64,000 nt of DNA from Candidatus Binataceae bacterium (GTDB lineage Bacteria; Desulfobacterota; Binatia; Binatales; Binataceae). Shown one piece after another: positions 27,406 to 50,455 of the stretch (within the stretch, counting starts at the first letter, position 1; the number at the start of each line of letters is the position of its first letter). The stretch is taken from assembly GCA_963789715.1 (NCBI GenBank), contig CAWBLQ010000003.1, positions 523,916-587,915 on the forward strand. The letters run 5' to 3'. The notes under the pieces were generated by a model that saw only the letters and a list, made by a program, of their open reading frames with translations, made no database searches and had not been told where the DNA came from. Position numbers and translations under genes: made by a program.

Positions 27406-27423
27406 GGTCAACGCGCCGGCCGG

Positions 27424-33786: not shown

Positions 33787-33900
33787 CCGGCCCGTCCTTG
33801 CCTCAAGATAAGTACGACGGACGAATCTTAAGGTAACGGACGGGAGCGCATCAAGCGCGCGGCACGATTGAGTTGAGCAGCCGCAGCGGAGGCGGACGGC

Positions 33901-34548
33901 TTAGCGCACGCGTCGCGCCGGTCTGACTTTGAGGTGGCGGGTGCTTCTGCGGGACTTGACGTACATGACAACTGCTACGAATCCGATGAACAGAATTTCC
34001 CACCAGAGCAGCACATTGGCCTGGTCGAGATGGCTGTACCACGTATTCGCGGGAGGCGCCTGTGCGGCAGGCGAGCCGATGGTGCTCATGAAGTTGTCAC
34101 GCCATCGGGACATCGCGATCACACCATTCCAGATCAGGCCCGCGACCAGCACCATCGACCAGAACAGAATACCGAACTGCTCGGGCATGCGGCGGCGCAC
34201 GATGCCCTCAAGCGAAGCCGGTTCGGTCACAATCGCGGGTGCGATAGGAGCCGCGACGCGGCGGAAATCCGGGGTCGGGGCTTCCGAGTGATCGGCGGGA
34301 GGCGCGGCCGGCCGAGGGACGCGGGGCGCATGACCGGGGTCGCCAGCCTCGCGAATCTGGCGCAGGATGAAAAGCATATCCTGCTTGCAAGTCAGGGTTC
34401 CCAACAGCGCGCATTTCGACAGCGCCTCGAGTTCCTTAGGGGTAATCCTGAGACGCTCGATCAGTTCGCGATCGTTTCGAATCTGATCGAGGATCGCTTG
34501 TTCTTCCCGCGGGGCGGGGATCGAATGGCCCTGGAGTTCGCCTTTCAT
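33901..34548 (-). CDS. Hypothetical membrane protein (cytoplasmic N-domain plus two C-terminal TM helices)
   Basis: Two hydrophobic helices (FGILFWSMVLVAGLIWNGVIAM, LLWWEILFIGFVAVVMYV) and a basic C-terminus. Confidence 0.45.
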   Translation of the reverse strand: MKGELQGHSIPAPREEQAILDQIRNDRELIERLRITPKELEALSKCALLGTLTCKQDMLFILRQIREAGDPGHAPRVPRPAAPPADHSEAPTPDFRRVAAPIAPAIVTEPASLEGIVRRRMPEQFGILFWSMVLVAGLIWNGVIAMSRWRDNFMSTIGSPAAQAPPANTWYSHLDQANVLLWWEILFIGFVAVVMYVKSRRSTRHLKVRPARRVR

Positions 34549-34812
34549 GGGGTCGAATTTTTACGCTGGAGCACCGCATAAAGCAAGACTAAAGGAGACA
34601 TGAGATATATAGGATATTAGAACATCTATAAGAGACGAGAAAAGAAGCAATAGATAAAGCAAACAGTACGACTTATCTACCTACTGTATGTTTCAGCGGG
34701 CGAAACAGTAACGAAACTCTACTTTTCGTATGGCATGGAGTGGGCGCGGCCGGCATCGCGGCTCCATCGGTGAACTCTACCGCAGCGATCGGCGCTTACA
34801 GATGATATGGAC

Positions 34813-35847
34813 TTAAACGGCAGCCAGGCGTTTCAGGCTGTCGGATTCGCCAATCGCGACGAGCAAGTCGTCGGGCTCAATCCGCGTTTCGGGAGCAGGA
34901 ATCATTTCGAGCTTTTCGTCGTTGCGCTTCATCGCCACGATCCGAAGCCGCGGATTCTCGCGTTCCACTGCCGCGATTGTCTTGCCGGCCGCTGGGCTTT
35001 CCGGCGAGATCCTGATTTCCTCCAGATCGACCTCAGACTCACGGCCTGGTACCGACAGTTGCAGAAAATCGACGACCGACGGACGCAGGATGCTCGCCGC
35101 GATTCTCATCCCGGCCCATTGATAGGCCGCGACTACCTGGTCCGCTCCCGCTAACTTCAACCGCCGCAACCCCGCATCTGAGTCGCCACGGGCATAGATT
35201 AGAATCTTCGGATTTTTCTCGCGCGCTGAAAGCGTGATGTACACGTTGTCCGCATCAGATCCGGTGGCGACGATTATCGCGCGGGCGGAATTGGTCCCGG
35301 CGTCCTCGAGCACTGAATCCGCCAGCGCCGATCCAATAATGTGCAACGCGCCGACGCTGTCCAGGTCGGCTTGCTTGGCGGGATCCGCCTCGATCACCAC
35401 CATCGGCACCGTGTTGCGAGCAAGCTCTTCGACAACCGCGCGGCCGAAACGGCCGAAGCCGCACACGATGACATGCCCCTGGAGATTGTGAATTTTGCGA
35501 TTCATTGCGCTCTTCCCGAGAAACTCTCTAAGGCGCCCCTCAACCACCAGTTCCCCGATTACCGAAAACAGGTAAATCGCGCTGCCTACACCTGTGACTA
35601 TCAGCCCGATTGTGAAAAGACGACCGGCCGGGCTGAGCGGTTTTACCTCACCAAAACCGACCGTCGAGATGGTGATGACGGACATGTAGAAGGCGTCGAG
35701 AACTGACCAGTGCTCGATCAGCATGTAGCCGGCGGCGCCTATCACGGTCATCAGGGCGACCAAAAAGACCGCGAGCGCGAATCTGCGAGTTGGGGTCATC
35801 CCGATGGAGGCAGCAGCTTTCCCTTGAAGGTTTCGGCGACTCTGCAC
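34813..35847 (-). CDS. Two-TM K+ channel with cytoplasmic RCK (TrkA-N plus TrkA-C) domains (MthK/Kch-like)
   Basis: Selectivity filter TISTVGFGE between two TM helices. HVIVCGFGRFGRAVVEEL is the Rossmann GxGxxG of RCK_N. The C-terminus is a TrkA-C domain. Confidence 0.8.
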   Translation of the reverse strand: MQSRRNLQGKAAASIGMTPTRRFALAVFLVALMTVIGAAGYMLIEHWSVLDAFYMSVITISTVGFGEVKPLSPAGRLFTIGLIVTGVGSAIYLFSVIGELVVEGRLREFLGKSAMNRKIHNLQGHVIVCGFGRFGRAVVEELARNTVPMVVIEADPAKQADLDSVGALHIIGSALADSVLEDAGTNSARAIIVATGSDADNVYITLSAREKNPKILIYARGDSDAGLRRLKLAGADQVVAAYQWAGMRIAASILRPSVVDFLQLSVPGRESEVDLEEIRISPESPAAGKTIAAVERENPRLRIVAMKRNDEKLEMIPAPETRIEPDDLLVAIGESDSLKRLAAV

Positions 35848-36038
35848 TCTACATCATAATCTGCATAGTCTGCTGCCTTGACGGTTGTCCTTCGGGGCGC
35901 CCTCGCCGTGGCGCCTGCGCTCATTGTGCTTCCGCATATCGAATGGCGCGACCGGATACACAATCACCACTGGATGCTGGATATCGCCTGTAGCCCCGGC
36001 ACGTTTGGCCGGCGGATTCCCTCACCGTCGCGGAGCCC

Positions 36039-36455
36039 TTAGGGGTTCATGATCTGGCTGGCGTCGGCGACGACGATTAAAAATGCTCTGAGCAGATCGG
36101 TTGTAGTGACGATGCCGACCAGCTTTCCGTCGGCGACGATCGGCAGTCCGCCGATCTTGTGTTTCAGCATCAGGCGCGCCGCGTCTTCCGCCGTATCATG
36201 CGGCGTGACGGTGACAAGCGCTGTGCGCATAGCCGCGTTCACGCGCGTCGATTCCAGAAAGCCCGAGTATTTGTGCAGGTCGCGTTCAGTCAGGATGCCG
36301 ACGAGTCGCCCGTCCTCGACCACCGGCACACGCCTGAAGTGACCGGCGTCCATGATGCTTTTTGCCCTCGACAAATTATCGTGCGGATGGATCGTTACCG
36401 GGTCCGAAGTCATAAAATTAACAATCTGCATGGTTTTGTTCTCCGTGGCGGTCAA
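36039..36455 (-). CDS. CBS-domain pair protein
   Basis: Two CBS motifs (MTSDPVTIHPHDNLSRAKSIMDAGHFRRVPVVEDGRLVGILTERDL... and ...LMLKHKIGGLPIVADGKLVGIVTTTDLLRA). Confidence 0.8.
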   Translation of the reverse strand: MTATENKTMQIVNFMTSDPVTIHPHDNLSRAKSIMDAGHFRRVPVVEDGRLVGILTERDLHKYSGFLESTRVNAAMRTALVTVTPHDTAEDAARLMLKHKIGGLPIVADGKLVGIVTTTDLLRAFLIVVADASQIMNP

Positions 36456-36648
36456 CTTGATCAGACTGCAATTCGCTTGCCATCAGGCTGACGCGTTTAT
36501 CGTGCCCGTTAGCCTGCATTCAAAATTTGCTCGCTGGTGCGATCGGATACAGATCCGCCTGGCAGCTCTCGAAAACCTTTACCCGGCCAGTGGCACGGCA
36601 TTCGTCATTCGAATCAAGCTGCGCGTGAGTGGCGCACCTTTAAACAAT

Positions 36649-36688
36649 GCCCCGGCCGGGAGTCGAACCCGGACTTGAAATTCCGGAG
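36649..36688 (-). repeat. Direct repeat of the 3' 40 nt of tRNA-Arg(CCG), the distal att site of the integrated island
   Basis: Reverse complement CTCCGGAATTTCAAGTCCGGGTTCGACTCCCGGCCGGGGCA matches tRNA positions 32-72 (CTCCGGAACCTCAAGTCCGGGTTCGATTCCCGGCCGGGGCA) at 38 of 41. There is no 5' half and no CCA, so it is a fragment and not a tRNA gene. Confidence 0.6.
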
Positions 36689-37024
36689 TGCTGCACGACT
36701 GGATCACCAAAAGCCGTTATCGGCCTTTCATAAAGGCTTTTCCGCCGCCGCAGGTTACGATAGTGGCGATCTTCGGCCCCTGTCCACACCAGTTCGGGCA
36801 CGGTCGGGGCACGGTTTCTTACTCACGGAATATTTTTTCTAACAGATAGTCTCCATCGGGCGTAACGCTAAAGGCTCGGCGACCCGCCCCGTGTCGCGCC
36901 CGACGCACCCCGCATCGAGCCCTGAAAGCGGCGCACGCGGCGCGACGCGCGGGTTGTCGGCGCGTTTGCGGGCGACGGGCCGGCGCCCACCACAGGGGCG
37001 TTTTGCGCTACAGGGCTGGTTGGA

Positions 37025-37291
37025 ATGAAAACCAAGAAGGATGAACGACAGGAGCGGCTCGATTCGCAGGGCCAGCTGACCCGCATCGAGGATATGCCGA
37101 AGCTGTCGCCGCGCGACGCGGCTTTTTTCCGCAAGCTTGGCCAGTATATTGACAGTTGCCGCGTGCTCGGCAAGGACGATGGGTTGCTTGATCCGGATAC
37201 CGCCGATATGCTGCGCGAGTCCGGCGTGCTTGTGCTCGACGAAGAGATCGCGCCGCGGCCGCCGGTAGCAGTCCATCGGAGGAAGAAGTAG
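37025..37291 (+). CDS. Small hypothetical protein (88 aa, charged)
   Basis: Protein-like composition (MKTKKDERQERLDSQGQLTRIEDMPKLSPRDAAFFRKLGQYIDS...). Competes with a minus-strand ORF at 36839-37339. Weak call. Confidence 0.25.
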   Translation: MKTKKDERQERLDSQGQLTRIEDMPKLSPRDAAFFRKLGQYIDSCRVLGKDDGLLDPDTADMLRESGVLVLDEEIAPRPPVAVHRRKK

Positions 37292-37816
37292 GGCAGGCGA
37301 GATGAACTCGTGCCCGGCCAGTTCATCTTTAATCCTCAATGTCGAGCCTAGTTAAAACCCGATCCGCTTGTGTGGGCTAACTGCTACTCGCTCAGCTCGT
37401 CGAGCAGCGCCTTGGCGTCTTTTCAGGTCGGGGTGCCTTCGATGAACCAGTTGTGGATTTACGTGAGCATCGCGCCGCGGTTCGTCGGATTGCCCCTGTT
37501 TCGCCGGCATCCGTGCGAGGTTGGTGCTAGCACGTTGGACTCTGAACTCAAACTGTGTGCTTGCAAACCGCCTGGTGCCGCGTCCGGCGCCACAGTTGCG
37601 CAATAGCATCGCGGGTCAGCTTAGAAGCTTCGCGCATCGCGGGAAAGGCGACCCGCCGCTTGAGGGCGACGACCGGCACCTGTCGCTTTTCTATCAGCTG
37701 GAAAGTGCGAGATGATAGGCGGAGTACCAAGTCGGTCTCGTGGGAACCGGTTTGGACTTGCGGAAGAAAATGGATATACGCTACTTGCTTAGTAATCGCG
37801 GAGTTAAGGTCGGCAA

Positions 37817-40800
37817 TTGCGACGTTGGATGCGTTTCAAGTCGTTCGCGCGGTTCATAGCCATCCTGAGCTTGTTGCTCTCGTTTGTGTTGGCCGCGTCT
37901 ACGCGTCCCGCGCTGTCGCAGTCGAACGACGATTCGTCAGCTCATAACAAGACGGCCGTAAGTAAACTTTCTGTCTCGCCCAAAACGCTGACCTACAACG
38001 TCAATATCGACAAGGGTCAATTCAGCGAGACCCAGCATTTCACTATCAAGAACAACGGGACGCTGCCGTTGCTCGTAACCGTCGGCGCGCCCAGCGACGC
38101 TGAAAATTACGTGATTATATTCCCGTCCGCGATTTCACCCGTGGGCGGAACGCTCACGATTCCGGGTTCGAAAAGCCAGCAGGTGGAGGTTGAGTTCATC
38201 CCCCACGGACCCGGCAAGAACGTAGACGGGACTATCGCCGTCGGCAGTAACGCTACGAGCGGGCCAAACTCGGCGACCGTCAATTTGCACGGGAACGCCA
38301 CGCAGAAGAAGCCGACCCCGACTGCAACGGCGACGGCAACTGCGACCGCGACGACAACCGCAACCGCGACGCCTGCTACAGCGACTTCGACTGCCACAGC
38401 GACGGCCACTGCGACGGCGACAGCCACCGCGACGGTTACTCAGACGGCGACCGCAACGGCGACCGCGACGACAACCGCAACCGCGACGACAACCGCTACA
38501 GCGACTTCGACTGCCACAGCGACGGCCACTGCGACGGCGACAGCCACCGCGACGGCTACTCAGACGGCGACCGCAACCGCCACAGCAACATCGACTGCCA
38601 CGGCGACATCGACAGCCACGGCGACATCGACAGCCACGGCGACCACGACTGCCACGGCGACCGCGACGACAACCGCAACCGCGACGCCGACTGCTACAGC
38701 GACTTCGACTGCCACAGCGACAGCCACCGCGACGGCTACTCAGACGGCGACCGCAACCGCCACAGCAACATCGACTGCCACGGCGACATCGACAGCCACG
38801 GCGACCACGACTGCCACGGCGACCGCGACGACAACCGCAACCGCGACGCCGACTGCCACAGCGACGGCCACTGCGACGGCGACAGCCACCGCGACGGCTA
38901 CTCAGACGGCGACCGCAACCGCCACAGCAACATCGACTGCCACGGCGACATCGACAGCCACGGCGACATCGACAGCCACGGCGACCACGACTGCCACGGC
39001 GACATCGACAGCCACGGCGACCGCGACTGCCACGGCGACCGCGACTGCCACGGCGACCGCGACAGCCACCGCGACCGCAACCGCGACGCCTACTCCAACC
39101 CTCACTCCGACGCCGACGGCCACCGGCAGCCCTACGAACTTTCTTTCGGGGACGGTGCAAAGCGGGCCCGGCACAGGCATCCCGGTCTCGGGCGCAGCGG
39201 TGACGATCTATGAGGCAGGAACAGCTTACGGCGCCGGTGCCGGAGCTCTGGCAAGCACAACCACCAATTCCAGTGGCAACTTTACGATAGGCTTCGATCC
39301 GCCGGCTACACCCACGGTCCTCTACCTCGTCGCGCTCGGCGGGAATGCCGGGTCCGGGAGCAACACGGCGATCGGGCTGATCGGCGTAGCGGGAAAGTCC
39401 AACGCCATTCCCGCGTCGGTCACGATCAACGAGCTGACGACGGTGGCAGCCGAGTGGGGGCTGGCGCAGTTCACCGACTCGACGGGCCAGTTTATCGGTG
39501 CGCCCTCGAGCAACGCCACCGGCATTCGCAATGCGGCCGCGCAGGCGCAGGCAAATCTGGCTGACATCGTGAGCGGCGGGCCGGCGAGCTTCTGGAGTAG
39601 CGAGGGCGCGACTGCGGCAAGCTGCATTGGCAGTACAGGGCCGATCAACTGCGACGGCCTGGACCGGCTCGACACGATCGCCAACATCCTGGCCGCGTGC
39701 GTGGAGAGTTCGGGAGCGTCGTCGAACGCATGCAGCACGCTGCTGAGCAACACGGGCGGCAGCACCACGCTCGCGGCGGCGCACGTAATGGCGACCAAGC
39801 CGGTCGCGCATGTAGCTACGCTGTTCGGCCTTCTAAGCGGTTCTCCGTTCACCCCCGTTCTGGGCCTTCAGCCCGACGGCTGGGAGATCGTGCTCAATTT
39901 CGCACCGAGCGGCGCCAGCTTCAATTCTCCCTTCGGCGTGGCAATCGACGCCGGCGGCAACGCCTGGGTGGCGAACCTTGCCGGCAATAGCGTGACCGAG
40001 TTGACCTCCAGCGGCGCCTTGGTGGGTAACTTCCTCGGAGGCGCCAACTTCAACTCTCCGGTAGTTGTGGCAATCGACGCCTTGGGCGACGCTTGGGTGG
40101 CGAACGAAGGCGGTACCAGCGTCACCGAGTTGACCTCCAGCGGCGCTCTGGCCGGTAACTTCAACAACTCGATCAGCGAGCCGTCCAGCGTGGCAATCGA
40201 TTCCGCCGGCGACGTCTGGGTGCCGAACCTTGGCAGCAATAGCGTGACTGAGTTGACCTCCGGCGGCGGGTTGGCCGGTAACTTCACCAACTCGATCAGC
40301 GGAGCCAACTTCGACGGCCCGCAAGGCGTAGCAATCGACGCTGCCGGCGACGTCTGGGTGCCGAACTTTGACGGCAACAGCGTGACCGAGTTGACCTCCG
40401 GCGGTGCCCTGGCCGGTAACTTCGCTCCCAAAGGCGCCAACTTCGACCGCCCGGACGGCGTGGCAATCGACGCCGCCGGCAATGCCTGGGTGACGAATCT
40501 TAGCAACAGCGTGACCGAGTTGACCTCCAGCGGCGCCTTGGCCGGTAATTTCAACAACTCGATCAAAGGTGCCAACTTCGACGGCCCGTACGGCGTGGCA
40601 ATCGATTCCGCCGGCAACGCCTGGGTGCCGAACTTTCAAGGCAATAGCGTGACCGAGTTGACCTCCAGCGGCGCCCTGGCCGGCAACTTCGCTGCCGACG
40701 ACGCCGTCTCTACCAGCGCCACCTTCGACGGCCCGCAAGGCTTGGCAATCGACGCCGCGGGCGACGTCTGGGTAACGAACGGAGACGGCGCCGGCAGTGT

Positions 40801-40891
40801 GGCCGAGATCGTAGGCGCGGCGCGCCCGGTCCTGACGCCGCTGATGGCCTGCCTCAACCAAAAGCCGCCGCACGCAGTCTGTCTGCCGTAG
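37817..40891 (+). CDS. Secreted NHL-repeat beta-propeller protein, paralog C (island-borne, about 260-aa Thr/Ala/Ser/Pro linker)
   Basis: Signal peptide MRRWMRFKSFARFIAILSLLLSFVLAASTRPALSQS. Ig-like domain, (TA)n linker from about residue 175 to 435, Cys-rich domain, about 11 NHL-like repeats. Tail is ..EIVGAARPVLTPLMACLNQKPPHAVCLP. Confidence 0.8.
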   Translation: MRRWMRFKSFARFIAILSLLLSFVLAASTRPALSQSNDDSSAHNKTAVSKLSVSPKTLTYNVNIDKGQFSETQHFTIKNNGTLPLLVTVGAPSDAENYVIIFPSAISPVGGTLTIPGSKSQQVEVEFIPHGPGKNVDGTIAVGSNATSGPNSATVNLHGNATQKKPTPTATATATATATTTATATPATATSTATATATATATATATVTQTATATATATTTATATTTATATSTATATATATATATATATQTATATATATSTATATSTATATSTATATTTATATATTTATATPTATATSTATATATATATQTATATATATSTATATSTATATTTATATATTTATATPTATATATATATATATATQTATATATATSTATATSTATATSTATATTTATATSTATATATATATATATATATATATATATPTPTLTPTPTATGSPTNFLSGTVQSGPGTGIPVSGAAVTIYEAGTAYGAGAGALASTTTNSSGNFTIGFDPPATPTVLYLVALGGNAGSGSNTAIGLIGVAGKSNAIPASVTINELTTVAAEWGLAQFTDSTGQFIGAPSSNATGIRNAAAQAQANLADIVSGGPASFWSSEGATAASCIGSTGPINCDGLDRLDTIANILAACVESSGASSNACSTLLSNTGGSTTLAAAHVMATKPVAHVATLFGLLSGSPFTPVLGLQPDGWEIVLNFAPSGASFNSPFGVAIDAGGNAWVANLAGNSVTELTSSGALVGNFLGGANFNSPVVVAIDALGDAWVANEGGTSVTELTSSGALAGNFNNSISEPSSVAIDSAGDVWVPNLGSNSVTELTSGGGLAGNFTNSISGANFDGPQGVAIDAAGDVWVPNFDGNSVTELTSGGALAGNFAPKGANFDRPDGVAIDAAGNAWVTNLSNSVTELTSSGALAGNFNNSIKGANFDGPYGVAIDSAGNAWVPNFQGNSVTELTSSGALAGNFAADDAVSTSATFDGPQGLAIDAAGDVWVTNGDGAGSVAEIVGAARPVLTPLMACLNQKPPHAVCLP
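38320..39115 (+). repeat. About 800-bp coding tandem-repeat array (6-nt ACx-GCx units nested inside higher-order ~160-190-nt units) encoding the Thr/Ala linker of paralog C
   Basis: Blocks such as ..gcgacggctactcagacggcgaccgcaaccgccacagcaacatcgactgccacggcgacatcgacagccacggcg.. recur at least three times. The protein shows ..ATATQTATATATATSTATATSTATATSTATATTTATAT.. repeated. Confidence 0.8.
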
Positions 40892-41310
40892 ATCGCCGCC
40901 TCGGGGATCATGCCGCGAAGCCCTGCGTCGCCACCTCAACCGCACCGGATTACACATCCTGTGTACCGCGCAAAGCGCCCGATTTCGTTACGAAACCACC
41001 CCTCTGTGCCTGTTTTGTGTCTCTTCATTTAAAGGGTACAAGGACGGCGCGAGCCTGATGGGGTTTTATGTGCCCACAGGCCGCGCCACCCCGCCCAAGG
41101 CGCTAACACCCCCGCACCCGGCCGAATGCGCGGCGCGGCGCGACGCGCGCGAGTCTCGGCCGGTTTGCGGGCTCGAACTCTGCATTTGCAGAGACTCGCT
41201 GTCGGTGCTAGTCCGATTTAGGATTGAAAAAGGAAATTCCGGTTCAAAGAACTGCGCTAATCTGCCATCGGTGGGCAGGCTAGCCACCTCGCCTCGCCAC
41301 GGGGGACGCT

Positions 41311-42630
41311 ATGGACTACTTTGCTAAGGGCCTGTTCCGTCTCGCGTTGTTCGCATTTTCCATCCTGTTCTGTCTGGGAAGTCACGTCCGAACTGCGGAT
41401 GCTGCGAGTTGTACAGTTCCTCCTGGTACAGTCGTTACTCAAACCGACATTCTCGGAAACTCTTGTTCCGCAACTCAAACAACCGCGAGTACGGCTACGG
41501 CAAGCGCGGGTGGCCTTGACAATACAGCGACGTCAACCGCGACTACCGACAGCACTGCTACCTCCGAAGCGGCTGGCTCGGATAATAACGCTGCGTCAAC
41601 CGCGACTACCGACAGCACTGCTACGGCAAACGCGACTGGCACCGGAAACGCGGCGACGTCGGCCGCGACTACCGACAGCACTGCTACGTCCACCGCGTCT
41701 GGCGGGGGCAATACGGCGACGTCGACCGCGACTACTGATGGCTCGGCCACTTCGTCAGCCACCGGTATTGACAGCACGGCAACCGCCACGGCCACCGACA
41801 GCACCGCTATCGCTACCGCCGCCGACGCAGGCACCGCAACGTCGACCGATAGCACCCCAGGTACGACTGTCTGTACATTTGCCGGCGACGCCTCATCGAC
41901 CGCAACCGGCAGCGACGTGAACGCCCCCAGTTGCGTAGGCGATGACGCTGTAGTCGTTAGTCCCGCGGGCATCTGCGGCCCGGTTGCTACAAGCCCCTGC
42001 GCCTCGTTTTTGCCCCCGGCAAGCGGGGCCGGCATCGAGCTGCAGGATTATTTCAGCAACGCCAACACTACCGGAGGCCAGGGCTTCGTCAATATCACTT
42101 CTCCCTTCGAGGGCAATCAAACGGCCACCAACCCCGTGGTTCAAGAGGGTGAGATGTGCGCGATGATTTACGTGTTGAACACCGACCAGGCTGTGGAGGC
42201 CTGCTGCGGATGTCCGATCACCGCCGACGGTCTGCTGACCCTGAGCATCAGCGGCAATTTGGCGCCGAACCCGGTGGCTTCAGGCAGGATTCTCCATGAC
42301 GGCTCGATCCGTATCCTCTCGACCGCTATCAATTCCGCTATCACCGGGCTGACGCTGCCCAGGGGCGTGAATTGCGACGCGGTCACCGGCGCGTGCTGCG
42401 ATCCTACCGCGGAGGGCGGCGCCAAACCGCTGGTTCCCCAGCTTGAGCTGGCCGCATGGGCAAACCACGTGCAAAATACCCAGATCACCGAAGCGGTGTT
42501 CCAGACCACTCCCACTCCCGAGGCCGCCGGCGACCTCACTAGTTTGCCGTCCGCGTGCGCTTTCGCCGTAGAGACGGGCAGCGGCCAGGGAGTGTGTACC
42601 TGCGGCACCGGCGGATTCGGCATCGAGTAA
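41311..42630 (+). CDS. Secreted protein with a 13-aa periodic Ser/Thr/Ala repeat region and a Cys-rich C-terminal domain (island cargo)
   Basis: Signal peptide MDYFAKGLFRLALFAFSILFCLGSHVRTADA. At least 8 repeats of ~(N/G)xA(A/T)STATTDSTATS. The C-terminal ~200 aa contain CTFAGD, CVGDD, CGP..SPC, EACCGCP, CDAVTGACCDP, CAFA, CTCGTGG (about 16 Cys). Confidence 0.65.
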   Translation: MDYFAKGLFRLALFAFSILFCLGSHVRTADAASCTVPPGTVVTQTDILGNSCSATQTTASTATASAGGLDNTATSTATTDSTATSEAAGSDNNAASTATTDSTATANATGTGNAATSAATTDSTATSTASGGGNTATSTATTDGSATSSATGIDSTATATATDSTAIATAADAGTATSTDSTPGTTVCTFAGDASSTATGSDVNAPSCVGDDAVVVSPAGICGPVATSPCASFLPPASGAGIELQDYFSNANTTGGQGFVNITSPFEGNQTATNPVVQEGEMCAMIYVLNTDQAVEACCGCPITADGLLTLSISGNLAPNPVASGRILHDGSIRILSTAINSAITGLTLPRGVNCDAVTGACCDPTAEGGAKPLVPQLELAAWANHVQNTQITEAVFQTTPTPEAAGDLTSLPSACAFAVETGSGQGVCTCGTGGFGIE

Positions 42631-42788
42631 CCGGCATCAAGTGCGTCATCCAGAGTAGATGGCGCTCTGTCGGCGGCGGCGATTGCCGTATGCTGGTCCA
42701 AAGTAGCAATCGCAATTAGTAGGACCGCAGATAGGGTTCCCCAGCGGGCCGCCTCCTCGCGCTTGCTACCGAGCACCCAAGAGCGCAA

Positions 42789-43607
42789 CTAGTTGCGCTC
42801 TCGGACCTCGTTAAACGCCGCGATCATAGCTTTGCGGTAGCCCATGAGCTTTGCCGCGTCGCTCTTCTCCTGCCGCACCTCGCGGTTGAAGGCCTTGATG
42901 TTGAGCACGCTGTCCATCGCATCGCGCACCAGTTTTTGCAAATTCTCGGGCGCCAGCGCCTCTACCTCATAGACCGTCTGGTCTGGGCCATGGATCTTTT
43001 TGAAGCGCTTGGCCTTTGTGTCATCTTTGCCGGGTTTAGTAAAAGATTTTGGCAGACGCAGGGAGCGAATCTGCTCCTGCGTAATCGCGACCTTGATTGG
43101 CACCAACCTCTCTGACCCGATCTCGAAGTCATCGCGCATCGAGCGCGCAAAACTCTCTGCAATATCCTCGCCGCTAGGATCGAAGTCGCTTACGATCAGC
43201 AGGACCAATTTTTCCTTGCCGCTTTCGATAAAACGCTGATGCATCTTGTACCTGGGTGGCAGCGATGAGTAGCCGCGGCCTGACCTCATCGGCACACAAA
43301 AATCCGCGGCCACCTGCTTGAGGATCTTCCAAACAAACTCCGGACGTGTGTCGTCGGCGATCGCATCCATCGGGATGATCCCTTGAATCCTAGCCGTGGT
43401 GGCGACCTTTGAAAGTTCCCGATAACTTTGGATCTTGTTGGCGTATCGTGTGGCGGGTCTCGATGCATGCCTGAGCGGTGGATCGTTCAGCAGGTTGTAG
43501 TGAATCTGCCGTAGCGAGACCGGCCAGTAATCGTTGAGAACCCCGTCTAGTATCTTGATGATGGCGTCCAACAGGGGCCGCTTGGCGTCGGTGATCCGGG
43601 CGCCCAT
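42789..43607 (-). CDS. Hypothetical island protein with a possible Toprim-like DxDxxG motif
   Basis: ..KLVLLIVSDFDPSGEDIAESF.. is a hydrophobic strand followed by D-x-D-x-x-G, as in Toprim domains. No other catalytic motif recognised. Weak call. Confidence 0.35.
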   Translation of the reverse strand: MGARITDAKRPLLDAIIKILDGVLNDYWPVSLRQIHYNLLNDPPLRHASRPATRYANKIQSYRELSKVATTARIQGIIPMDAIADDTRPEFVWKILKQVAADFCVPMRSGRGYSSLPPRYKMHQRFIESGKEKLVLLIVSDFDPSGEDIAESFARSMRDDFEIGSERLVPIKVAITQEQIRSLRLPKSFTKPGKDDTKAKRFKKIHGPDQTVYEVEALAPENLQKLVRDAMDSVLNIKAFNREVRQEKSDAAKLMGYRKAMIAAFNEVRERN

Positions 43608-44158
43608 GGAAGGTTATTACAGACTAGACTAAGTTTTAGTGCGCCACGTACGCGGATTAGGTGACCGATTTTGGCGTAAGCAGTGGTGAGCCTGGGGACC
43701 AGGCCGTGGGCCCGCTAGGTTGTTGTCGCGACGACCGGGCCCCCCGATCCGCTGACGAATCGTGTTCCCCGCGGCGTTAGTAAAGCGCGCCGATTGCGCG
43801 GCGATTCGAAAGGTTGCCGGCCACGAGTGTTCGATTCCGTTTCAGCGCTTCGGCGCGCGACCTGAAGCGGCGAACCGGCGGCGGCCTGATCGCTTGACGG
43901 TCCGCTGATTCGCGGACAAGCGGTTTGCTCGATGGAGCGGGCCCGAACGTGACTTGAAAAATCAGGTCATGTGCGGGTCCGTTTTTTTATTTTCTGGAAC
44001 GACGGAGGTGGCTTCGATGGCGATGAACGCGATGAAGGAATCCGGGCCGGCCGATTTAGCGACGCTTGTTTAGCGAACGGGCGGCGGCGCGGATTTTGTG
44101 TGACTACTCAGGTAGGCAAATTGTCGTCGAGCATACACAGATTGTCGAGGAGCATTAA

Positions 44159-44926
44159 ATGAAAGATCAAAAGAATCAGCAATCAGCGATCGAAACCCGC
44201 AAACCGGATAACCTGCTCGCCACCACGGCGCACGCGATCGATGCGGCCCGCGATAGCGGCGACGCGAACAGCAACGACGCGCTCCAGCCTTGCGAAGAAA
44301 ACCTCGCCGCCGACCGGCCTCTCGCTGCTGCGACGCGCGAGGCACTTAGTCGCCTGGATCGAATCAGGCTGACCGGCGAGGGACGCGACCGGCTACTCCA
44401 CTTCGTCGCCCGCAATCACCGCGAGGCGCGCGGCTGCGACGCCGCCGAGCAGCGAATCGCCAGCGATCTCTTCGATCAGAACGTCGCGAAGGTTTGCCAG
44501 GCTCTCAAAGTCTTTAGCGTGGCGATCGTGCCCAGTCGCGAAGACGAGGCGATGACCGCGCTGCGGAAGTTCATGACCGACGCCCTCTCGCTGCTGGAGG
44601 CCGCCGACTTCGAAGGGCTTGGGCGAAAACTGACTGCCTTCAGTTATCGTCGGTATGCGCTCTCGCAGCCTGTCCCGCCGCCGTCGCCGGAGGCCGAGGC
44701 GCGCCGGACCCACGCCGCCGGGTGGAATGGACTTGAGCAAGAGGCTCTGGCGGCGCAGCTGAAGGTCGGCGAGACGCTCGCCAGCTTCGATGCCTGGCGG
44801 GCAATCACTAGCACCGGGCGGATCATCGACCGCCAGGAGCTGCGCGAAAAGTACCGGCCCGACTCCTGGACGCGGATCGACGACTGGCCGGCGCAGTTTC
44901 CGCCGATTCCAGACGAGCCGAAATAA
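44159..44926 (+). CDS. Hypothetical protein (island cargo)
   Basis: ORF with protein-like composition and an AT-rich RBS region (gaggagcattaaATG). No motif recognised. Confidence 0.45.
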   Translation: MKDQKNQQSAIETRKPDNLLATTAHAIDAARDSGDANSNDALQPCEENLAADRPLAAATREALSRLDRIRLTGEGRDRLLHFVARNHREARGCDAAEQRIASDLFDQNVAKVCQALKVFSVAIVPSREDEAMTALRKFMTDALSLLEAADFEGLGRKLTAFSYRRYALSQPVPPPSPEAEARRTHAAGWNGLEQEALAAQLKVGETLASFDAWRAITSTGRIIDRQELREKYRPDSWTRIDDWPAQFPPIPDEPK

Positions 44927-45306
44927 TGGACCAACTCGCACTCAACGTGATCTTGATTCAGATTTTCGCAAAAGAAGGAGAGACAAACATGAACCAGTCT
45001 GATGAACAGATCCGCAGAGCGTTCGGCCTCCGCCGCGACGATTTTCGTCGCGCTAGGATCGCACGGATGCAGCAGGAAAGCGGCGGCGATGCTGCCACCT
45101 GCGAGCAGCAGCTGGAGACAATAGTTGGCGATCTGTCTGCTGCGTTGCGCGATCTGAGGCGAGACAACGACCTCAACGTGCTCGCCGGGTCGCTCGAGCA
45201 GGCATCCGACAACCTCGACCGGCTGCTCGCGCAGGCGAGCGCCGACAACGGTAGCGAGGATCACGAGGCGACGATGGTCGCGCGCCACATGCGCATGCCT
45301 CGTTAG
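44926..45306 (+). CDS. Hypothetical protein (island cargo)
   Basis: Start overlaps the previous stop (ATGA), which suggests an operon with the preceding gene. RBS-like aaggagag lies upstream of an internal Met. No motif recognised. Confidence 0.4.
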   Translation: MDQLALNVILIQIFAKEGETNMNQSDEQIRRAFGLRRDDFRRARIARMQQESGGDAATCEQQLETIVGDLSAALRDLRRDNDLNVLAGSLEQASDNLDRLLAQASADNGSEDHEATMVARHMRMPR

Positions 45307-45318
45307 TACGGAGAAGAT

Positions 45319-46384
45319 ATGGCCTTCCACCAGCAGCTCCCTGAGGCGCCCACGCCTGAAAGGATCGGGCAGGCAGGAATCGGCAAGCCGGTGACCGCAG
45401 CGATTCGCCGCATTACGCTCGACGACTTGATCGAGCTGGTGTCTACCGACTACGTAGACAATCAATTCGACACGCTCGCGCGCCAAGAGGACGCCTTCAC
45501 CCATTTGCGGGAATTCTTCGGCGGCGATTGCCTCGCGGACGATATCGCCCCGAGAATTCCGGACTATAAAGTTTGGCGCCGGCAGCAGCCCGACCGCCGA
45601 TCGTTAAAACGCAAAGACGGACACCCGTACAAACTTCCACCGCGAATCGGCTACCGTCGCGACCGTCAACCGGGAACTAGCGTCGCTGCGGCATGCGTTC
45701 GTCTTGGCGACTCACCAAACCCCGCCGATGGCTGTTGCGGTGCCGTATATCAAGTTGAGCAAGGAGCGGAATCGGCGGACTGGATTTTTCGAGTGGGATC
45801 AGTTCGTCAAGGTCCGAAAACATCTACCCGACTACTTAAAGCCCGTCATGACGGTCGCGTTCTATACGGGTTGGCGCGCCCCGTCGGAAATTTGCACACT
45901 GCAGTCGAAGCACATTATCGACGGAATGCTGGTGCTTGAAGCCGGTGAAAGCAAAAACGAGCAGCCCCGAAAGTTTCCGCTCGACATAATTCCCGAATTG
46001 CGCGAGACCATCGAGGCACAACTCGCGGCGACGCGGAAGATCGAGGTTGAGAGCGGGCGCGTGATTCCGTGGCTGTTCCCCGGCCGTTACGGCAATCAGA
46101 TAGTCGATTATCAGCCCGCGTGGCGTGCGGCGTGTAAGGCGGCCGGGTGCGCTGGTCGAATCCCGCACGATTTCCGGAGAACCGCTGCCCGCAACTTGAT
46201 CAACGCCGGAGTCGATCCATTGACCACGATGCAGCTGGTCGGTTGGGAAGATATCGGCATGCTCAAGCGCTACGCGATCATCGATGATGAAACCCTAAAA
46301 CGAGGCGTCGCGAAACTCGCCCCGCATGTGGCTGAACAAAGGGCAGTGCGCGCGGCAAAAAAAGTGGTCGCCATCGGTGGATAA
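45319..46384 (+). pseudogene. Tyrosine-type phage integrase, interrupted by a frameshift near 45550-45700
   Basis: Frame 1 (45319-45939) encodes the N-terminal SAM-like or arm-binding domain (..ITLDDLIELVSTDYVDN..FTHLREFFGGDCLADDI..). Frame 2 (open from about 45600 to 46384) encodes ..NRELASLRHAF.. and the catalytic domain with R...HDFRRT...GWEDIGMLKRY (R-H-R-Y). The frames overlap but do not join. Confidence 0.6.
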
Positions 46385-46479
46385 GCGCCAACCCAAACAA
46401 AAAGGGGCACGGTCGGGGCACGGTTTCGGCCTTTTGCCGGCGTGCCCCGAAAAATTATCCGCATGTTGTCGACAGTTTT

Positions 46480-46554
46480 TGGTGCCCCGGCCGGGAATCG
46501 AACCCGGACTTGAGGTTCCGGAGACCTCCGTGATGTCCTTTTCACTACCGGGGC
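46480..46554 (-). tRNA. tRNA-Arg (anticodon CCG), 72 nt plus encoded CCA
   Basis: Reverse complement GCCCCGG-TA-GTGA-AAAGGACA-TCAC-G-GAGGT-CTCCGGA-ACCTC-AAGT-CCGGG-TTCGATT-CCCGG-CCGGGGC-A-CCA folds into a canonical cloverleaf by eye. The anticodon loop is CT-CCG-GA. Confidence 0.8.
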
Positions 46555-46620
46555 GAAACCATTCGGCAAAGGACAGAATTATATCAGCGATGCGTGGCGG
46601 ACAAGCCGAGCGAGAGTTGA

Positions 46621-47454
46621 TTGCCGCGCCGGGCCGGCGGCAACATAGTCCCGATGGCGACGAACACCGGTATCGATTCCGCGCAGGTCCTGCGCGAGCA
46701 ATACAAGGACGGCTCCAAGCTGTCGTCGCGCATCCGGCTTCATCAGCGCTTCAGCACCAATCGCTACGGGCAGACGCGCTGGATGCTCGATCGGATCCAG
46801 GTTCCTGAAGACGCGCGCGTGCTCGAGCTGGGCTGCGGCACCGGCTTGTTGTGGCGCGGCTCGACGCAGGTTCCACGCGGATGGCGCGTGATTCTAACCG
46901 ACATGTCGGACGGGATGATCCGCGAGACGCGCGCCAGTCTCGTTCGTCTCGGCCGTTCGTTCAGCTACTCGCAGGCCGACGCGCAGGCGATCCCGTTTTG
47001 CGACGCATCGTTCGACGCGGTGATCGCCAATCACATGCTCTATCACGTGCCCGACATTCCGCGCGCGCTCGGCGAGGTTCGGCGCGTGCTCAAGCCCGCG
47101 GGTTCCTGCTACGCGGCCACGATGGGCCTCGCTAACATGCGGGAGCTGGACCAACTTGCGGCGCGCTTTTTTTCGATTCCGCGAATGACGGAGTCGACCG
47201 CCCGCTTTGGCCTCGAGAGCGGCGAGGCTTACATGCGCCGGGCCTTCAGCGACGTGAAGCTCGAACGCTACCCAGACTCGCTGTTGGTGACCGAAGCTGC
47301 GCCGCTGATGGACTATATCTGCTCGATGCGCGTGCGCAGCAGAATCAGCGACGAACAGATCGCGGCGCTAAGGCGGCATCTCGACGACGAAATCGCGGCG
47401 CACGGCGAAATTCGAATCACCAAGGACTCAGGCTTGTTCATCGCGCGGCGCTAG
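46621..47454 (+). CDS. Class I SAM-dependent methyltransferase
   Basis: VLELGCGTG is motif I. ..LKPAGSCYAATMG.. is the post-II region, typical of a Methyltransf_11/12 fold. Confidence 0.8.
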   Translation: MPRRAGGNIVPMATNTGIDSAQVLREQYKDGSKLSSRIRLHQRFSTNRYGQTRWMLDRIQVPEDARVLELGCGTGLLWRGSTQVPRGWRVILTDMSDGMIRETRASLVRLGRSFSYSQADAQAIPFCDASFDAVIANHMLYHVPDIPRALGEVRRVLKPAGSCYAATMGLANMRELDQLAARFFSIPRMTESTARFGLESGEAYMRRAFSDVKLERYPDSLLVTEAAPLMDYICSMRVRSRISDEQIAALRRHLDDEIAAHGEIRITKDSGLFIARR

Positions 47455-48312
47455 TCAGAACAGGATCGACGGAATGAATCGGAATCGCGGTTCGTTGTAG
47501 AGGCCGACGGTCATCAGCGTCATCTGCTGGAACAGGCGCAGTCCCCTGCTGTAGCACCACCTGAGCAGTTCGCCATTGCGCGACGGCACCAGCGGGCCCA
47601 CGCCGAGAAAGGCCGGCGCCGCGGAAATCAGGGCCTTGAGCTCCTCGTTCGATTCACCGACGGCGTGGCCCGCGTATCCGATCGCGGTCGCGTAGCCGGT
47701 GATGCGCCCGAGATGCTCGACGACCGCGGCCGTGCCGCTCTTGATCGCGTCGCGCAGTTCGCCGCCGCGATCGTGTCCATGGACGAGGGCGCACAGCCGG
47801 TTGCAAGCGGCGAGGTCGGCGTCGGTGGCGGCACGAACCGGGTAGCCGGGGACTGACTCTTTGATCGGCGATCCCACCATCGCGGACAGCGGCTCGCGGA
47901 TCTCGAAGCCGAGCTTGGCATACAAGCTGAACGAGCGATTGTGATAGGCGGTCTGCACCAGCCGGACGCCGGGCAATCGATTGGCCGCGACGCGATCGAG
48001 CATGTGTTGCATCATCGCGCGGCCGGCGCCGCTGTTCTGCATGTCGGGATCGACGCTGATAGGACCGATTCCGCCCATCGGCGCGCGCTCGTCCATGAAG
48101 TTGCTGCCGGCGATTCGTCCGTTCAGCTCGGCGACGATTCCGTAAAAGCCGGGATTCGAAATCATGCCGCGGATTGTACCGACGGCGTTGTCGAGCGACG
48201 GAAACTCGTGCGGAAAGTTGTGCTGGTCGGCGATTCCGCAGAACGCGCGGTAACAGATCTCGCCGCAAACCTCGATGTCCTCGCGGGTCGCGCGTCTAAT
48301 CTGCGCGTTCAT
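47455..48312 (-). CDS. GNAT family N-acetyltransferase (two-domain)
   Basis: ..NSGAGRAMMQHMLDRVAAN...FSLYAKLGFE.. is the acetyl-CoA-binding motif. Confidence 0.65.
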   Translation of the reverse strand: MNAQIRRATREDIEVCGEICYRAFCGIADQHNFPHEFPSLDNAVGTIRGMISNPGFYGIVAELNGRIAGSNFMDERAPMGGIGPISVDPDMQNSGAGRAMMQHMLDRVAANRLPGVRLVQTAYHNRSFSLYAKLGFEIREPLSAMVGSPIKESVPGYPVRAATDADLAACNRLCALVHGHDRGGELRDAIKSGTAAVVEHLGRITGYATAIGYAGHAVGESNEELKALISAAPAFLGVGPLVPSRNGELLRWCYSRGLRLFQQMTLMTVGLYNEPRFRFIPSILF

Positions 48313-48342
48313 CTGCGGCGTCCTCCAAAAATCGACAACTGC

Positions 48343-49251
48343 TTATGCCGAAGCCTTGGTCTCGCGCAGCATCTCGGCGTGGCGCCGATCCGCCTCGGGC
48401 CGCGTCTGCGCAATCGTCTCGATCAGCGCATCGTGCAGCCGCCCGTTGGTCGCCACGATGTTCGCGCCGCCAAGGTCGAGCTCGGAGCCGTCCATGTTGG
48501 TCACGCGCCCGCGCGCTTCCTCGACCAGGATCGCGCCTGCCGCCACGTCCCATGGCCGCAGCCCGAATTCCCAGAAGCCGTCGGTACGCCCCGCGGCGAC
48601 GTAGGCGAGATCGAGCGCGGCCGAGCCGGTGCGGCGCACGCCCTGCGTGCGCGTCATGAATTCCTCCCAGAAGCACAGATAGAAGCGCCGGCGCTCGCGC
48701 CGATCGTACGCGAACCCCGTGCAGAGCAGGGCGGCGCCGAGGTTGGGCGTGGTGCTGACGCGAATCGGCTTGCCGTTGAGCCGCGCGCCCTGTCCGCGAT
48801 GCGCGATGAAGCATTCTTTCTTCAGCGCGTCGAAGACCACGCCGAACTGCACGCGCCCGCGCCGCTGGTACGCGATCGACACGCAGAACTGCGGATAGCC
48901 GTGCGCGAAGTTGGTGGTGCCGTCGAGCGGATCGATGATCCATCGATGGTCGCTTTGATGCGCGCTGGCGCCGCTTTCTTCTGCGAGGATCGCATGGGTG
49001 GGAAAGGCGCGATGGATAACTTCGATGATCGCCGCCTCCGACTCGCGATCGGCTTCGGTGACGAGATCGATCGAGTTGGACTTGCGGCTGATTGTTATTC
49101 TGCTGAGCCGTTTGAGGTGGATTCGGCCGGCGGCACGCGCAGCGCGGAGCGCAACCTGTTCGATTTCATTTGTCACGGTAAAGCAAAGTATTACTCGCCG
49201 CGAGAAGCGTCCAGCGCCGCGCGTCAGATCAATCGACAAGTCGCACGACAA
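48343..49251 (-). CDS. suhB: Inositol monophosphatase family protein (SuhB-like)
   Basis: ..IIDPLDGTTNFAHG.. and ..WDVAAGAILVEEARG.. are the signature motifs. The real start is probably a GTG near 49150 (..EIEQVALRAARAAG..). Confidence 0.8.
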   Translation of the reverse strand: MSCDLSIDLTRGAGRFSRRVILCFTVTNEIEQVALRAARAAGRIHLKRLSRITISRKSNSIDLVTEADRESEAAIIEVIHRAFPTHAILAEESGASAHQSDHRWIIDPLDGTTNFAHGYPQFCVSIAYQRRGRVQFGVVFDALKKECFIAHRGQGARLNGKPIRVSTTPNLGAALLCTGFAYDRRERRRFYLCFWEEFMTRTQGVRRTGSAALDLAYVAAGRTDGFWEFGLRPWDVAAGAILVEEARGRVTNMDGSELDLGGANIVATNGRLHDALIETIAQTRPEADRRHAEMLRETKASA

Positions 49252-49276
49252 ATCGACGCGCGATGCGAATCCGCAT

Positions 49277-50455
49277 CTACCAGCGCGGCGTCTCCGCCAG
49301 GCCCACGCCGAGCGCGACCTTGCCGAGCAGCTCGCGGGCGCGCGCGTTGGACAGCGGATGGTTCGTACCGGCGCGAACGTCGCGGTAGTAGCGCTCCATC
49401 GGGAATTTCTTCAGCATCCCGTGCGCGCCGACGACCTCCATGCAGTAGTCGACCGCGCGGATCGCGTTGTTGGTCGCGACATACTTCGGCATCACGACCC
49501 GCGCCAGTCCCGGCTCGCCCTTGAACGACTCGCGCTCGCCGATGTAGTCGCGGGCGACGCCGAGGTAGAGCGCGCGCGACTGCGCGATCAGCGCTTCGGC
49601 CTCGGCGATAGCGAACTGGATGCCGGGCAGGTATTTGATCGTGCGCGGCTGCGTCAGCGGCTTGAGGCGGCCGGCAAACTCCTTGGCGAACTTCAGCGCC
49701 GCAATCGCCACGCCGGTATAAGTCGCGGCGACCGAGATGCCGAACCACGCGAACAGCGAAATCGCCTGGTCGTTGACGGGGCCGATGGGCCGCGATTCCG
49801 CCATCGCGATCGCGGGCACCCGAACGTCCTTGATTACCAGGTCGTGGCTGGCCGTCGCCCGCATCCCCATCGCGTCCCAGGTTTCGACCAGCTCGAAGCC
49901 GGGCGTGCCGCGCGGCACGACGAAAGTGGCCGACGCCGGCGGACTCGAATCCTCGATCGTCGCCATCACCATGAACAGATCGATCACGGGCGAGAGGCTG
50001 GTGAAGGTTTTGCGTCCGTTGAGGACGTAAGTCTCGCCGTCGCGGCGCGCCCGCGTCGCGAAGTAGCCCCAATCGCCGCCGGTCTCGGGCTCGCTGATGC
50101 CGCCGCCGAGGATTTGATGCCCGCGCCCGACAACGTCGAAGAACAATTTCTCCTGCGGGCGCCCGGTGGCGCGCTCGACCATGCTGCCGATGCCGAACAG
50201 ATGCATGTTGATGGCGATGGTCGTCGCGGCGCAGCCTTGCGCGAGCTGCTCCTGGCAGAGCGCAAAATCCTCGAGGTCGGCGCCCAGTCCGCCGAATTTT
50301 TCGGGAATGACCAGCGCGGTGTAACCGGCCGCTTTCATCTTGTCGACGTTTTCGACCGGGAATGAATTGGCGCGATCGTGCTCCGCGGCGCGAGTGGCAA
50401 AGTCGGCCGCCAGCTCGGCGGCGAGCGGCACAAGTTGATTGCGTCGATCAGACAT
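49277..50455 (-). CDS. Acyl-CoA dehydrogenase family protein
   Basis: N-terminal all-alpha domain, middle beta domain and C-terminal alpha domain pattern (..YTGVAIAALKFAKEFAG.., ..RAVDYCMEVVGAHGM..). Confidence 0.8.
   Translation of the reverse strand: MSDRRNQLVPLAAELAADFATRAAEHDRANSFPVENVDKMKAAGYTALVIPEKFGGLGADLEDFALCQEQLAQGCAATTIAINMHLFGIGSMVERATGRPQEKLFFDVVGRGHQILGGGISEPETGGDWGYFATRARRDGETYVLNGRKTFTSLSPVIDLFMVMATIEDSSPPASATFVVPRGTPGFELVETWDAMGMRATASHDLVIKDVRVPAIAMAESRPIGPVNDQAISLFAWFGISVAATYTGVAIAALKFAKEFAGRLKPLTQPRTIKYLPGIQFAIAEAEALIAQSRALYLGVARDYIGERESFKGEPGLARVVMPKYVATNNAIRAVDYCMEVVGAHGMLKKFPMERYYRDVRAGTNHPLSNARARELLGKVALGVGLAETPRW

Follow-up and report, generated by a model that had tools for sequence, protein, structure and literature searches.

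The window analysed here is a 64-kb stretch of DNA (64,000 nucleotides, nt) belonging to an uncultured Candidatus Binatus genome (contig CAWBLQ010000003.1), and the subject of this work is a genomic island located between a tRNA-Arg(CCG) gene and a partial copy of the same gene. The island contains a tyrosine integrase pseudogene pointing at the tRNA, a pair of short repeats placed near its two ends, the remnant of a ParB-Toprim protein, genes for an NHL-repeat protein and a Ser/Thr/Ala-repeat protein, and hypothetical open reading frames (ORFs). tRNA-Arg(CCG), at 46480-46554 on the minus strand, is the single tRNA detected by ARAGORN in the 64 kb, and Rfam returns one tRNA at its gathering score (46483-46554, 63.2 bits). 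The 3' part of this live gene, 46483-46523, is repeated at 36648-36688, also on the minus strand. The two 41-nt segments share the same orientation and are identical at 38 of 41 positions, the chance expectation for such a copy being 0 (100 shuffles). The copy spans the first anticodon-loop base to the discriminator base (tRNA positions 32-72) and the 5' half is absent. The copy differs from the tRNA by three transitions; two affect the 3' strand of the anticodon stem, and the third is in the T loop. As the copy reaches 17.4 bits with the Rfam tRNA model, under the gathering score of 29, it does not constitute a second tRNA. These segments are referred to below as the attL core (live tRNA) and the attR core (displaced, non-functional copy), the two attachment sites of an integrated element. 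An earlier sequence-only reading of this DNA had described the same single tRNA and the same partial copy, with the proper identity, orientation and tRNA positions; it placed the start of the copy at 36649, the true start being 36648. A sub-threshold Rfam match to mascRNA-menRNA at 36649-36714 (minus strand, 30.7 bits for a threshold of 42.5) is almost certainly nothing else than the tRNA-like T arm.

The integrase gene is found at 45319-46384 on the plus strand, and 96 nt separate its end from the 3' end of the tRNA. A Shine-Dalgarno-like GGAG is present 7 nt 5' of the ATG at 45319. The N-terminal part is encoded in the frame of this ATG up to ..KLPPRIG, and the segment ..ATVNRELASLRHAF.., the catalytic residues and the stop codon at 46384 are all in the +1 frame. 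This downstream-frame part matches PF00589 (E = 1e-17) and contains R187, K213, H284, R287, W310 and Y319, which are invariant in the alignment of homologs. When the repaired integrase is used as a query, a protein of 355 amino acids (aa), P0001, is retrieved with 98% identity from a JGI metagenome contig (L001) which is itself 98.7% identical in DNA to positions 44379-47671 of the window. Comparison with this intact allele reveals a 2-nt deletion at 45651/45652 (GGC--TACCGTC against GGCTGTGCCGTC), located in the conserved RIGC motif. The lesion sequence GGCTACCGTC is identical in L171, a 340-kb contig originating from a different assembly and whose flank is 3.2% diverged. The deletion shared with this independent contig is therefore unlikely to be a sequencing error and most probably represents a real allele, as judged from the sequence comparison. 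The broken reading frame announced by the sequence-only reading is thus established.

Other carriers of the island display damage of their own. The integrases of L176 and L177 do not have the 2-nt deletion and show instead a 1-nt deletion at 45814, together with a Pro-to-Leu change beside the catalytic His. The L172 gene is an open frame, but a Trp occupies the position of an invariant Cys, and the otherwise 'intact' L001 allele carries a His-to-Asp change at an invariant position. The ratio of non-synonymous to synonymous polymorphism (pN/pS) between strains is about 1 for the integrase, versus 0.1-0.2 for the methyltransferase, GNAT and K-channel genes, a value which suggests neutral evolution. 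In addition, all alleles reaching the 5' end of the gene (window, L001, L171 and L172) start after the position corresponding to the first ~55 N-terminal residues of homologs of 385-406 aa, and no remnant of the integrase N-terminal domain was detected by tblastn, other frames included. A structural model of the homolog P0008, built from a 66-sequence alignment, has a mean predicted local distance difference test (pLDDT) score of 88. The part missing from the window copy is folded there as a beta-sheet and a helix (pLDDT ~92). The best PDB matches of the model are full-length lambda Int chains, with more columns aligned than for lambda Int 75-356. The missing ~55 aa would, on this modelling, fit the arm-binding N-terminal domain of a lambda-type (heterobivalent) integrase, a domain which the window copy does not possess. 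Taken together, these data identify the integrase as a pseudogene across the whole clade. It had been described previously as disabled and the island as fixed in place; with the N-terminal domain lost, independent frameshifts and a pN/pS of about 1, the gene is in fact more dead than was claimed.

The relatives of the integrase share its position as well as its sequence. Four homologous integrases (63-71% identical, plus near-identical copies) display the same geometry and point at the 3' end of tRNA-Arg(CCG). P0008, P0011, P0012 and the near-identical P0001 are all oriented towards this tRNA, which lies directly 3' of the integrase in L001, L002, L003, L005, L171 and L172. The family accordingly appears, from these genomic contexts, to be specific for tRNA-Arg(CCG). 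The sister elements (L002, L003/L004 and L005) encode full-length integrases of 385-397 aa and carry genes of phage or satellite type, namely AlpA/HTH_17 and DnaB, with TerL in L003.

Short repeats in the vicinity of both cores are candidate arm-type integrase sites. The sequence GGGCACGGTCGGGGCACGGTTTC, made of two GGGGCACGGT units with an 11-nt spacing, is found as an exact 23-nt match at 46405-46427 (plus strand, attL side) and at 36796-36818 (plus strand, attR side), in the same orientation. These are the only two places in the window, with 0 occurrences elsewhere in the 64 kb. When the GGGGCACGGT 10-mer is searched with one mismatch allowed, the 4 plus-strand sites obtained in 64 kb all fall within the two 23-nt motifs. 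The distance from the integrase stop codon to the first motif is 20 nt, and 55 nt lie between this motif and the core; the second is 107 nt inward of the attR core. The same pair, with an identical GGGCACGGTCGGGGCACGGT, is present 3' of the integrase stop codon in L005. Analogous tandem pairs of differing sequence, also 11-nt-spaced, follow the integrase stop codon in L002 and L003. By analogy with known integration systems, the 23-nt motif pairs look like arm-type sites placed on both arms of attP, the attachment site of the free element.

The chromosomal context without the island was obtained from three Binatus genomes (L173, L174 and L175) reached via methyltransferase homologs that are 80-84% identical. 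Their gene order is abhydrolase, g33901m-like, tRNA-Arg(CCG), methyltransferase, GNAT and inositol-phosphatase, and no integrase is present. The comparison with related genomes proposed in the sequence-only reading has therefore yielded the tRNA with its right flank and no integrase in three cases. DNA similarity between the window and L173 begins exactly at 46483, the tRNA discriminator base. From this flank comparison, the encoded CCA and all the DNA 3' of the window tRNA are island DNA. The genomic CCA (46480-46482) is present in the tRNA of the island carriers, where it is island-supplied; among the island-free genomes it is absent from L173 and L175 and present in L174.

On the left side, the L173 flank matches window positions 22613-28227, followed by g33901m (33928-34548) and its upstream region up to ~34746. 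The extra DNA preceding the tRNA in the window, relative to the island-free genomes, thus amounts to ~11.7 kb (~34750-46482) and comprises a K-channel gene, a CBS-pair gene, the tRNA fragment and the island. The extent of 9.8 kb given in the sequence-only reading is correct from fragment to tRNA; the relatives lack 11.7 kb and not 9.8 kb because of the K-channel/CBS block situated to the left of the fragment. Homology to the CBS loci of island-free relatives stops at 36602, 45 nt left of the fragment. No second tRNA fragment was found near 34750, and no tRNA-Arg was found near the K-channel gene in ~27 loci of species genomes or near the CBS gene in ~40 metagenome loci. The simplest reading of these comparisons is that the K-channel/CBS block would have been put beside the tRNA by a separate event. 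A scan for empty sites from the left side was misled because the block itself has been relocated in the lineage of the window. An older tandem element at the left, suggested by an arm-like GTGGCACGG at 36590-36598 outside the fragment, was rejected because this motif belongs to the conserved CBS upstream region, where it is also found in the island-free loci L090, L091 and L107.

The block itself is 1.9 kb long (34747-36602) and consists of the K-channel gene (TrkA_N/Ion_trans_2) and the CBS-pair gene; L173-L175 have no such block between g33901m and tRNA-Arg. The contexts of the K-channel gene vary in ~27 other Binatus genomes, where it is either 2-8 kb from the CBS ortholog or without CBS. 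A second lineage-specific insert of the window, NHL1-NHL2, occupies 28295-33900. In L174 the spot next to tRNA-Arg is occupied, without an integrase, by another insert of 2.7 kb that contains luciferase-like, MAPEG and HxlR genes. Given these varied inserts, the 3' flank of tRNA-Arg is a gene-content hot spot in Candidatus Binatus.

The divergence between carrier strains is markedly uneven. Between the window and L171, the right part of the island (41506-46479) shows 4 substitutions in 4974 nt (0.08%), versus 291 substitutions in 9047 nt (3.2%) for the adjoining chromosome (46555-55601). The corresponding values for the right part and the flank are 0.56% versus 1.47% in L172 and 0.33% versus 2.8% in L001, and synonymous divergence is 5-10 times lower in the right part of the island than in the flank. 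In the left part of the island, divergence from L171 is at the chromosomal level (2-4%), and the switch in divergence between the window and L171 is located at the tRNA. As the window and L171 share the frameshift, the island segment must have spread after the integrase was broken. The likeliest route for this low-divergence segment is homologous recombination in which the conserved tRNA provided one end, and the right part of the island in the window/L171 pair has the appearance of a segment imported recently by recombination, when its frameshift was already present. At the opposite end, the carriers L086, L119 and L171 have another decayed version of the attR fragment, and each version differs from the live tRNA at its own positions. 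The 150 nt just inside the fragment are identical between the window and these three carriers. The 48 nt to its left are also hypervariable (4/48 differences), the surrounding DNA being 0-2.6% diverged in L086, L119 and L171.

Among the genes of the island, the most informative is a truncated remnant at 42789-43607 (minus strand) of a protein combining a ParB_N domain with a Spo11/TopoVI-A-like (Toprim) part. It matches PHROG 6247 'DNA topoisomerase' (E = 1.4e-23) over the C-terminal part only. The homologs are 450-476 aa long and include the ParB_N domain; the window copy corresponds to their C-terminal 272 aa. The losses concern ~165 N-terminal residues, that is the whole of ParB_N, and ~43 internal aa containing the Toprim (E/G)EKNT motif. 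The copy still has the RQIHY motif and SDFDPxGE, the latter as SDFDPSGE, so that of the two Toprim signatures (conserved Glu and DxD) only DxD is there. No remnant of the ParB_N domain was found in other frames. The L172 copy is further split by an indel. The sequence-only reading had proposed a possible Toprim-motif protein at this place; the DxD motif is real, and the gene is actually this truncated ParB_N-Toprim remnant. A full-length homolog adjoins genes for DnaB, a small terminase and a prohead protease. The family as a whole (~470 aa, ~500 homologs, mostly from metagenome genomes of Planctomycetota) is characterized by RxIHY plus the Toprim E and DxD motifs, and no Pfam model covers its C-terminal 270 aa. 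The gene of one member, P0126 (L170, 2823-4232), immediately precedes DnaB in a phage replication module. Because a ParB-Toprim homolog is found in a phage replication module, and TerL and DnaB in the sister element L003, the island is regarded, by analogy, as probably phage-derived.

The NHL3 gene (37817-40891, plus strand; Pfam NHL and SGL) encodes a secreted NHL-repeat beta-propeller protein with a Thr/Ala-repeat linker of ~270 aa. It is 84% identical over 595 aa to NHL2 (30595-33045, minus strand), which is located outside the island. NHL3 is a mosaic, its C-terminal part being that 84% match and its N-terminal domain being nearer to NHL1. The linker measures ~20 aa in NHL1 and 60 aa in NHL2. 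The three paralogs (28295-33045 minus, 37817-40891 plus) are inverted around g33901m, the K-channel and CBS genes and the fragment, and none of them is present at the syntenic place in L173-L175. In L119 an extra NHL1-like gene follows NHL3 and mirrors the NHL2-NHL1 tandem. An NHL2-NHL3 inversion, suggested by a first BLAST comparison with L119, was rejected, as the L119 gene is an NHL3 ortholog throughout, followed by the extra NHL1-like gene. From these sequence relationships NHL3 is a recombining paralog of a host family and not clearly imported cargo.

The second secreted-type product, encoded at 41311-42630 (plus strand), is a Ser/Thr/Ala-repeat protein whose start resembles a signal peptide and whose C-terminal domain is Cys-rich. 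The family search gave only a weak DUF6764 match, and the protein is conserved in L166, L171 and L172. Tandem units of 63 nt (21 aa), forming repeat families D5 and D7, extend over 41479-41830. The L171 gene differs by one unit (63-nt indel at 41506-41568), and the number of repeats therefore varies between strains. A small ORF of 88 aa at 37025-37291 (plus strand) has no family match. It retains 98.9% protein identity in L086, L119 and L171 despite a DNA divergence of up to 2.6%, has a pN lower than pS, the reverse of the antisense 166-aa ORF (pN > pS), and shows a gene-typical GC content by codon position. It is probably the real gene within 36839-37339 and appears, from these comparisons, to be under purifying selection. 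A 255-aa hypothetical protein at 44159-44926 (plus strand), without any match in Pfam, PHROGs, NCBIfam or PADLOC, is conserved in the carriers, with an indel at 44246 interrupting the L172 copy. The 126-aa ORF at 44926-45306 (plus strand), immediately 5' of the integrase, has no credible family match; in L001 it contains a 4-nt deletion and no gene is called there, so its status as a real gene is uncertain. No useful matches were obtained for the hypothetical proteins with PADLOC, NCBIfam, Pfam at loose threshold or a PDB sequence search. The sequence-only description of the cargo therefore broadly stands for the Ser/Thr/Ala-repeat Cys-rich protein, the Toprim DxD motif, the hypothetical proteins and the expanded NHL3 linker.

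No phage structural, packaging or lysis genes were detected in the island with PHROGs, Pfam and NCBIfam, and no Pfam or NCBIfam match to a relaxase, coupling protein or type IV secretion component was found among its ORFs. The absence of phage structural and conjugation genes stated in the sequence-only reading is thus borne out. Likewise, no HTH_17/AlpA/Xis-type match corresponding to an excisionase or recombination directionality factor exists in the ORFs of 36689-45318, in contrast to the sister elements, which have HTH_17/AlpA ORFs.

The interpretation that best accommodates these observations takes 36648-46523 for the decayed remains of an integrative element of a Candidatus Binatus genome, probably derived from a prophage, and confidence in this reading is high. 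Four features expected of a tRNA-integrated element are present: an integrase, a distal 3' tRNA repeat, site specificity, and absence of the element in relatives. The family specificity, the 23-nt motif at both ends and the island-free relatives also uphold the attL/attR assignment originally proposed from the tRNA repeat. The proposed history can be summarized as follows. The attP site would have had tandem GGGGCACGGT arm-type sites on both sides of a core whose sequence was that of tRNA positions 32-72. A lambda-type tyrosine integrase would have joined this site to the tRNA-Arg(CCG) gene by recombination in the 3' part of the gene. The element presumably contributed a new tRNA 3' end, CCA included, by which the tRNA would have stayed intact at attL (46483-46523), and the displaced original 3' end would have become the attR fragment at 36648-36688. 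The decay that followed is documented in the sequences: phage-type genes have been removed or truncated, leaving a ParB-Toprim gene without its ParB domain and Toprim Glu motif. The integrase had lost its arm-binding domain in the common ancestor of all carriers seen, before independent frameshifts and substitutions at conserved positions accumulated in different strains. The element probably no longer excises by its own means and would be inherited with the chromosome, with strain-to-strain shuffling by homologous recombination. The intact survivors, NHL3 and the Ser/Thr/Ala-repeat protein, belong to host-type families of secreted proteins. What is observed today is neither an active lambda-type system, as the arm-binding domain and an excisionase are both missing, nor an intact prophage, nor a conjugative or mobilisable element.

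A number of observations weigh against this interpretation or limit its reach. The left synteny break is located at ~34750 and not at 36648; with the K-channel/CBS block lying in between, the original left junction cannot be verified. Positions 36603-36647 are only marginally similar to the native tRNA flank of L173 (p ~0.05), the comparison of L173 with L175 itself giving p ~0.04. Neither an excised circle, nor an attP, nor an empty site of the same species was present among the fetched loci, and all close relatives (methyltransferase identity of at least 97%) carry the element. The attR fragment differs at 7/41 positions between the window and L086, L119 and L171, which simple decay does not explain. 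No cargo shared between the window island and the sister elements was found when searched for. The 23-nt repeat is a candidate arm site by its position and by analogy. The phage origin is indirect, no structural gene having survived. Finally, NHL3 is a close paralog of the chromosomal NHL2, and some of the cargo may thus have been acquired by recombination once the element was already integrated.

The alternatives to a decayed element differ mainly in how much activity, or how little meaning, they attribute to the integrase. Persisting mobility of the element in a fraction of the population, with excision and integration in strains whose 355-aa integrase is uninterrupted (L001 and L172), is unlikely. 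These two open frames do contain all the catalytic residues and the Shine-Dalgarno-like GGAG precedes the ATG at 45319 by 7 nt; nevertheless, the arm-binding domain is absent from all alleles although the arm motifs are kept, and even the 'intact' alleles include the Cys to Trp (L172) and His to Asp (L001) changes in a gene with a pN/pS of ~1. The low divergence of the right part of the island (0.08% in L171, 0.56% in L172 and 0.33% in L001, against 3.2%, 1.5% and 2.8% in the flank) could be explained by such mobility, yet the least-diverged pair, window and L171, shares the frameshift, which points to homologous recombination, and, as the left part is 2-4% diverged from L171, the tract of low divergence does not coincide with the interval between the att sites. 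Two quite different versions of the attR fragment are what separate integrations could give; no excisionase candidate was found, however, in the ORFs of 36689-45318. A variant of this idea, equally improbable, holds that the arm-less 355-aa integrase works in some strains, perhaps helped by a related resident element, as an active shuttle. Such a shuttle would move the genes of NHL-repeat and Ser/Thr/Ala-repeat surface proteins between Candidatus Binatus strains, and would explain both the two attR versions and an island whose divergence is as much as 40 times below that of the adjacent chromosome.

A sequencing or assembly artefact, with a window integrase that is really an open 355-aa frame, is very unlikely. 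An intact allele with 98% protein identity does exist, but the same GGCTACCGTC lesion is present in L171, in another assembly with a flank differing by 3.2%, and it combines a 2-nt deletion and a substitution in non-homopolymer sequence. Independent lesions of other kinds affect the same gene in other strains, and even unshifted the gene would lack its N-terminal domain and evolve neutrally. It is also extremely doubtful that the 41-nt copy is the leftover of a tRNA duplication or of an unrelated rearrangement, with the integrase beside the tRNA by chance. The region is indeed heavily rearranged, with the K-channel/CBS block and the NHL1-NHL2 pair as lineage-specific inserts near the fragment and NHL paralogs on both sides, and in no relative is CBS next to tRNA-Arg. 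The copy nonetheless has its ends exactly at the anticodon loop and the discriminator base and is a direct repeat, as is the case for tRNA repeats made by integrases. Moreover, the window has one other copy of the 23-nt motif that follows the integrase stop codon, situated 107 nt inward of the fragment; the integrase family occurs without exception at tRNA-Arg(CCG); and the fragment and 23-nt motif are beside CBS in 0 of ~60 CBS loci of island-free relatives. A decayed integrative element remains the preferred reading of the locus.

For annotation purposes, pseudogene or remnant is the appropriate label for the integrase and the ParB-Toprim gene, and the integrase family together with the candidate arm motif (GGGGCACGGT x2) could aid the annotation of islands in metagenome-assembled genomes of Binatia. 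To our knowledge, mobile elements have hardly been described in this uncultured soil phylum, and a literature search on prophages or islands of Binatia returned nothing specific. The window provides a clean, well-bounded case of a tRNA-targeted element and of its decay in Binatia. It also adds a gene-content hot spot, the tRNA-Arg 3' flank, in Candidatus Binatus, and otherwise involves no new principle.

Lambda-type tyrosine integrases of the P4-, P22-, HP1- and L5-type systems integrate into the 3' part of tRNA genes. The window element resembles them in that the integrase adjoins the tRNA 3' end, the gene is regenerated by an element-borne copy that begins at the anticodon loop of the tRNA and includes its 3' end, this segment recurs in direct orientation at the far end, and short motifs flank the core in arm-type position. 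Full-length members of the family are modelled as three-domain proteins matching full-length lambda Int chains. Unlike in these systems, the window integrase is frameshifted and no longer has its arm-binding domain, and the element retains neither an excisionase nor any phage structural or replication gene. The host, an uncultured Binatia bacterium, and the target, tRNA-Arg(CCG), are different, and the binding of the motifs and the crossover point are predicted from the known systems by analogy. With the sisters L002, L003/L004 and L005, the element shares an integrase 63-71% identical, the same target and orientation and the tandem 11-nt-spaced motif; it differs from them by the absence of a full-length integrase and by a cargo to which theirs is not homologous. 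The defective prophages CP4-6, DLP12 and KplE1/CPS-53 of E. coli K-12 sit at tRNA genes, and several E. coli remnants retain a working integrase and can still excise. Like such cryptic enterobacterial prophages, the window element is a remnant of ~10 kb between tRNA-derived att repeats, inherited vertically, in which most phage genes are gone, those left are pseudogenes and genes of non-phage type are interspersed. In contrast to the E. coli remnants that still excise, every integrase allele seen in the window clade is damaged or unconstrained, and the surviving cargo consists of secreted NHL-repeat and Ser/Thr/Ala-repeat proteins with paralogs in the adjacent chromosome. The island is therefore an ordinary, textbook kind of genome feature, of an already-known kind, encountered here in a little-studied phylum.

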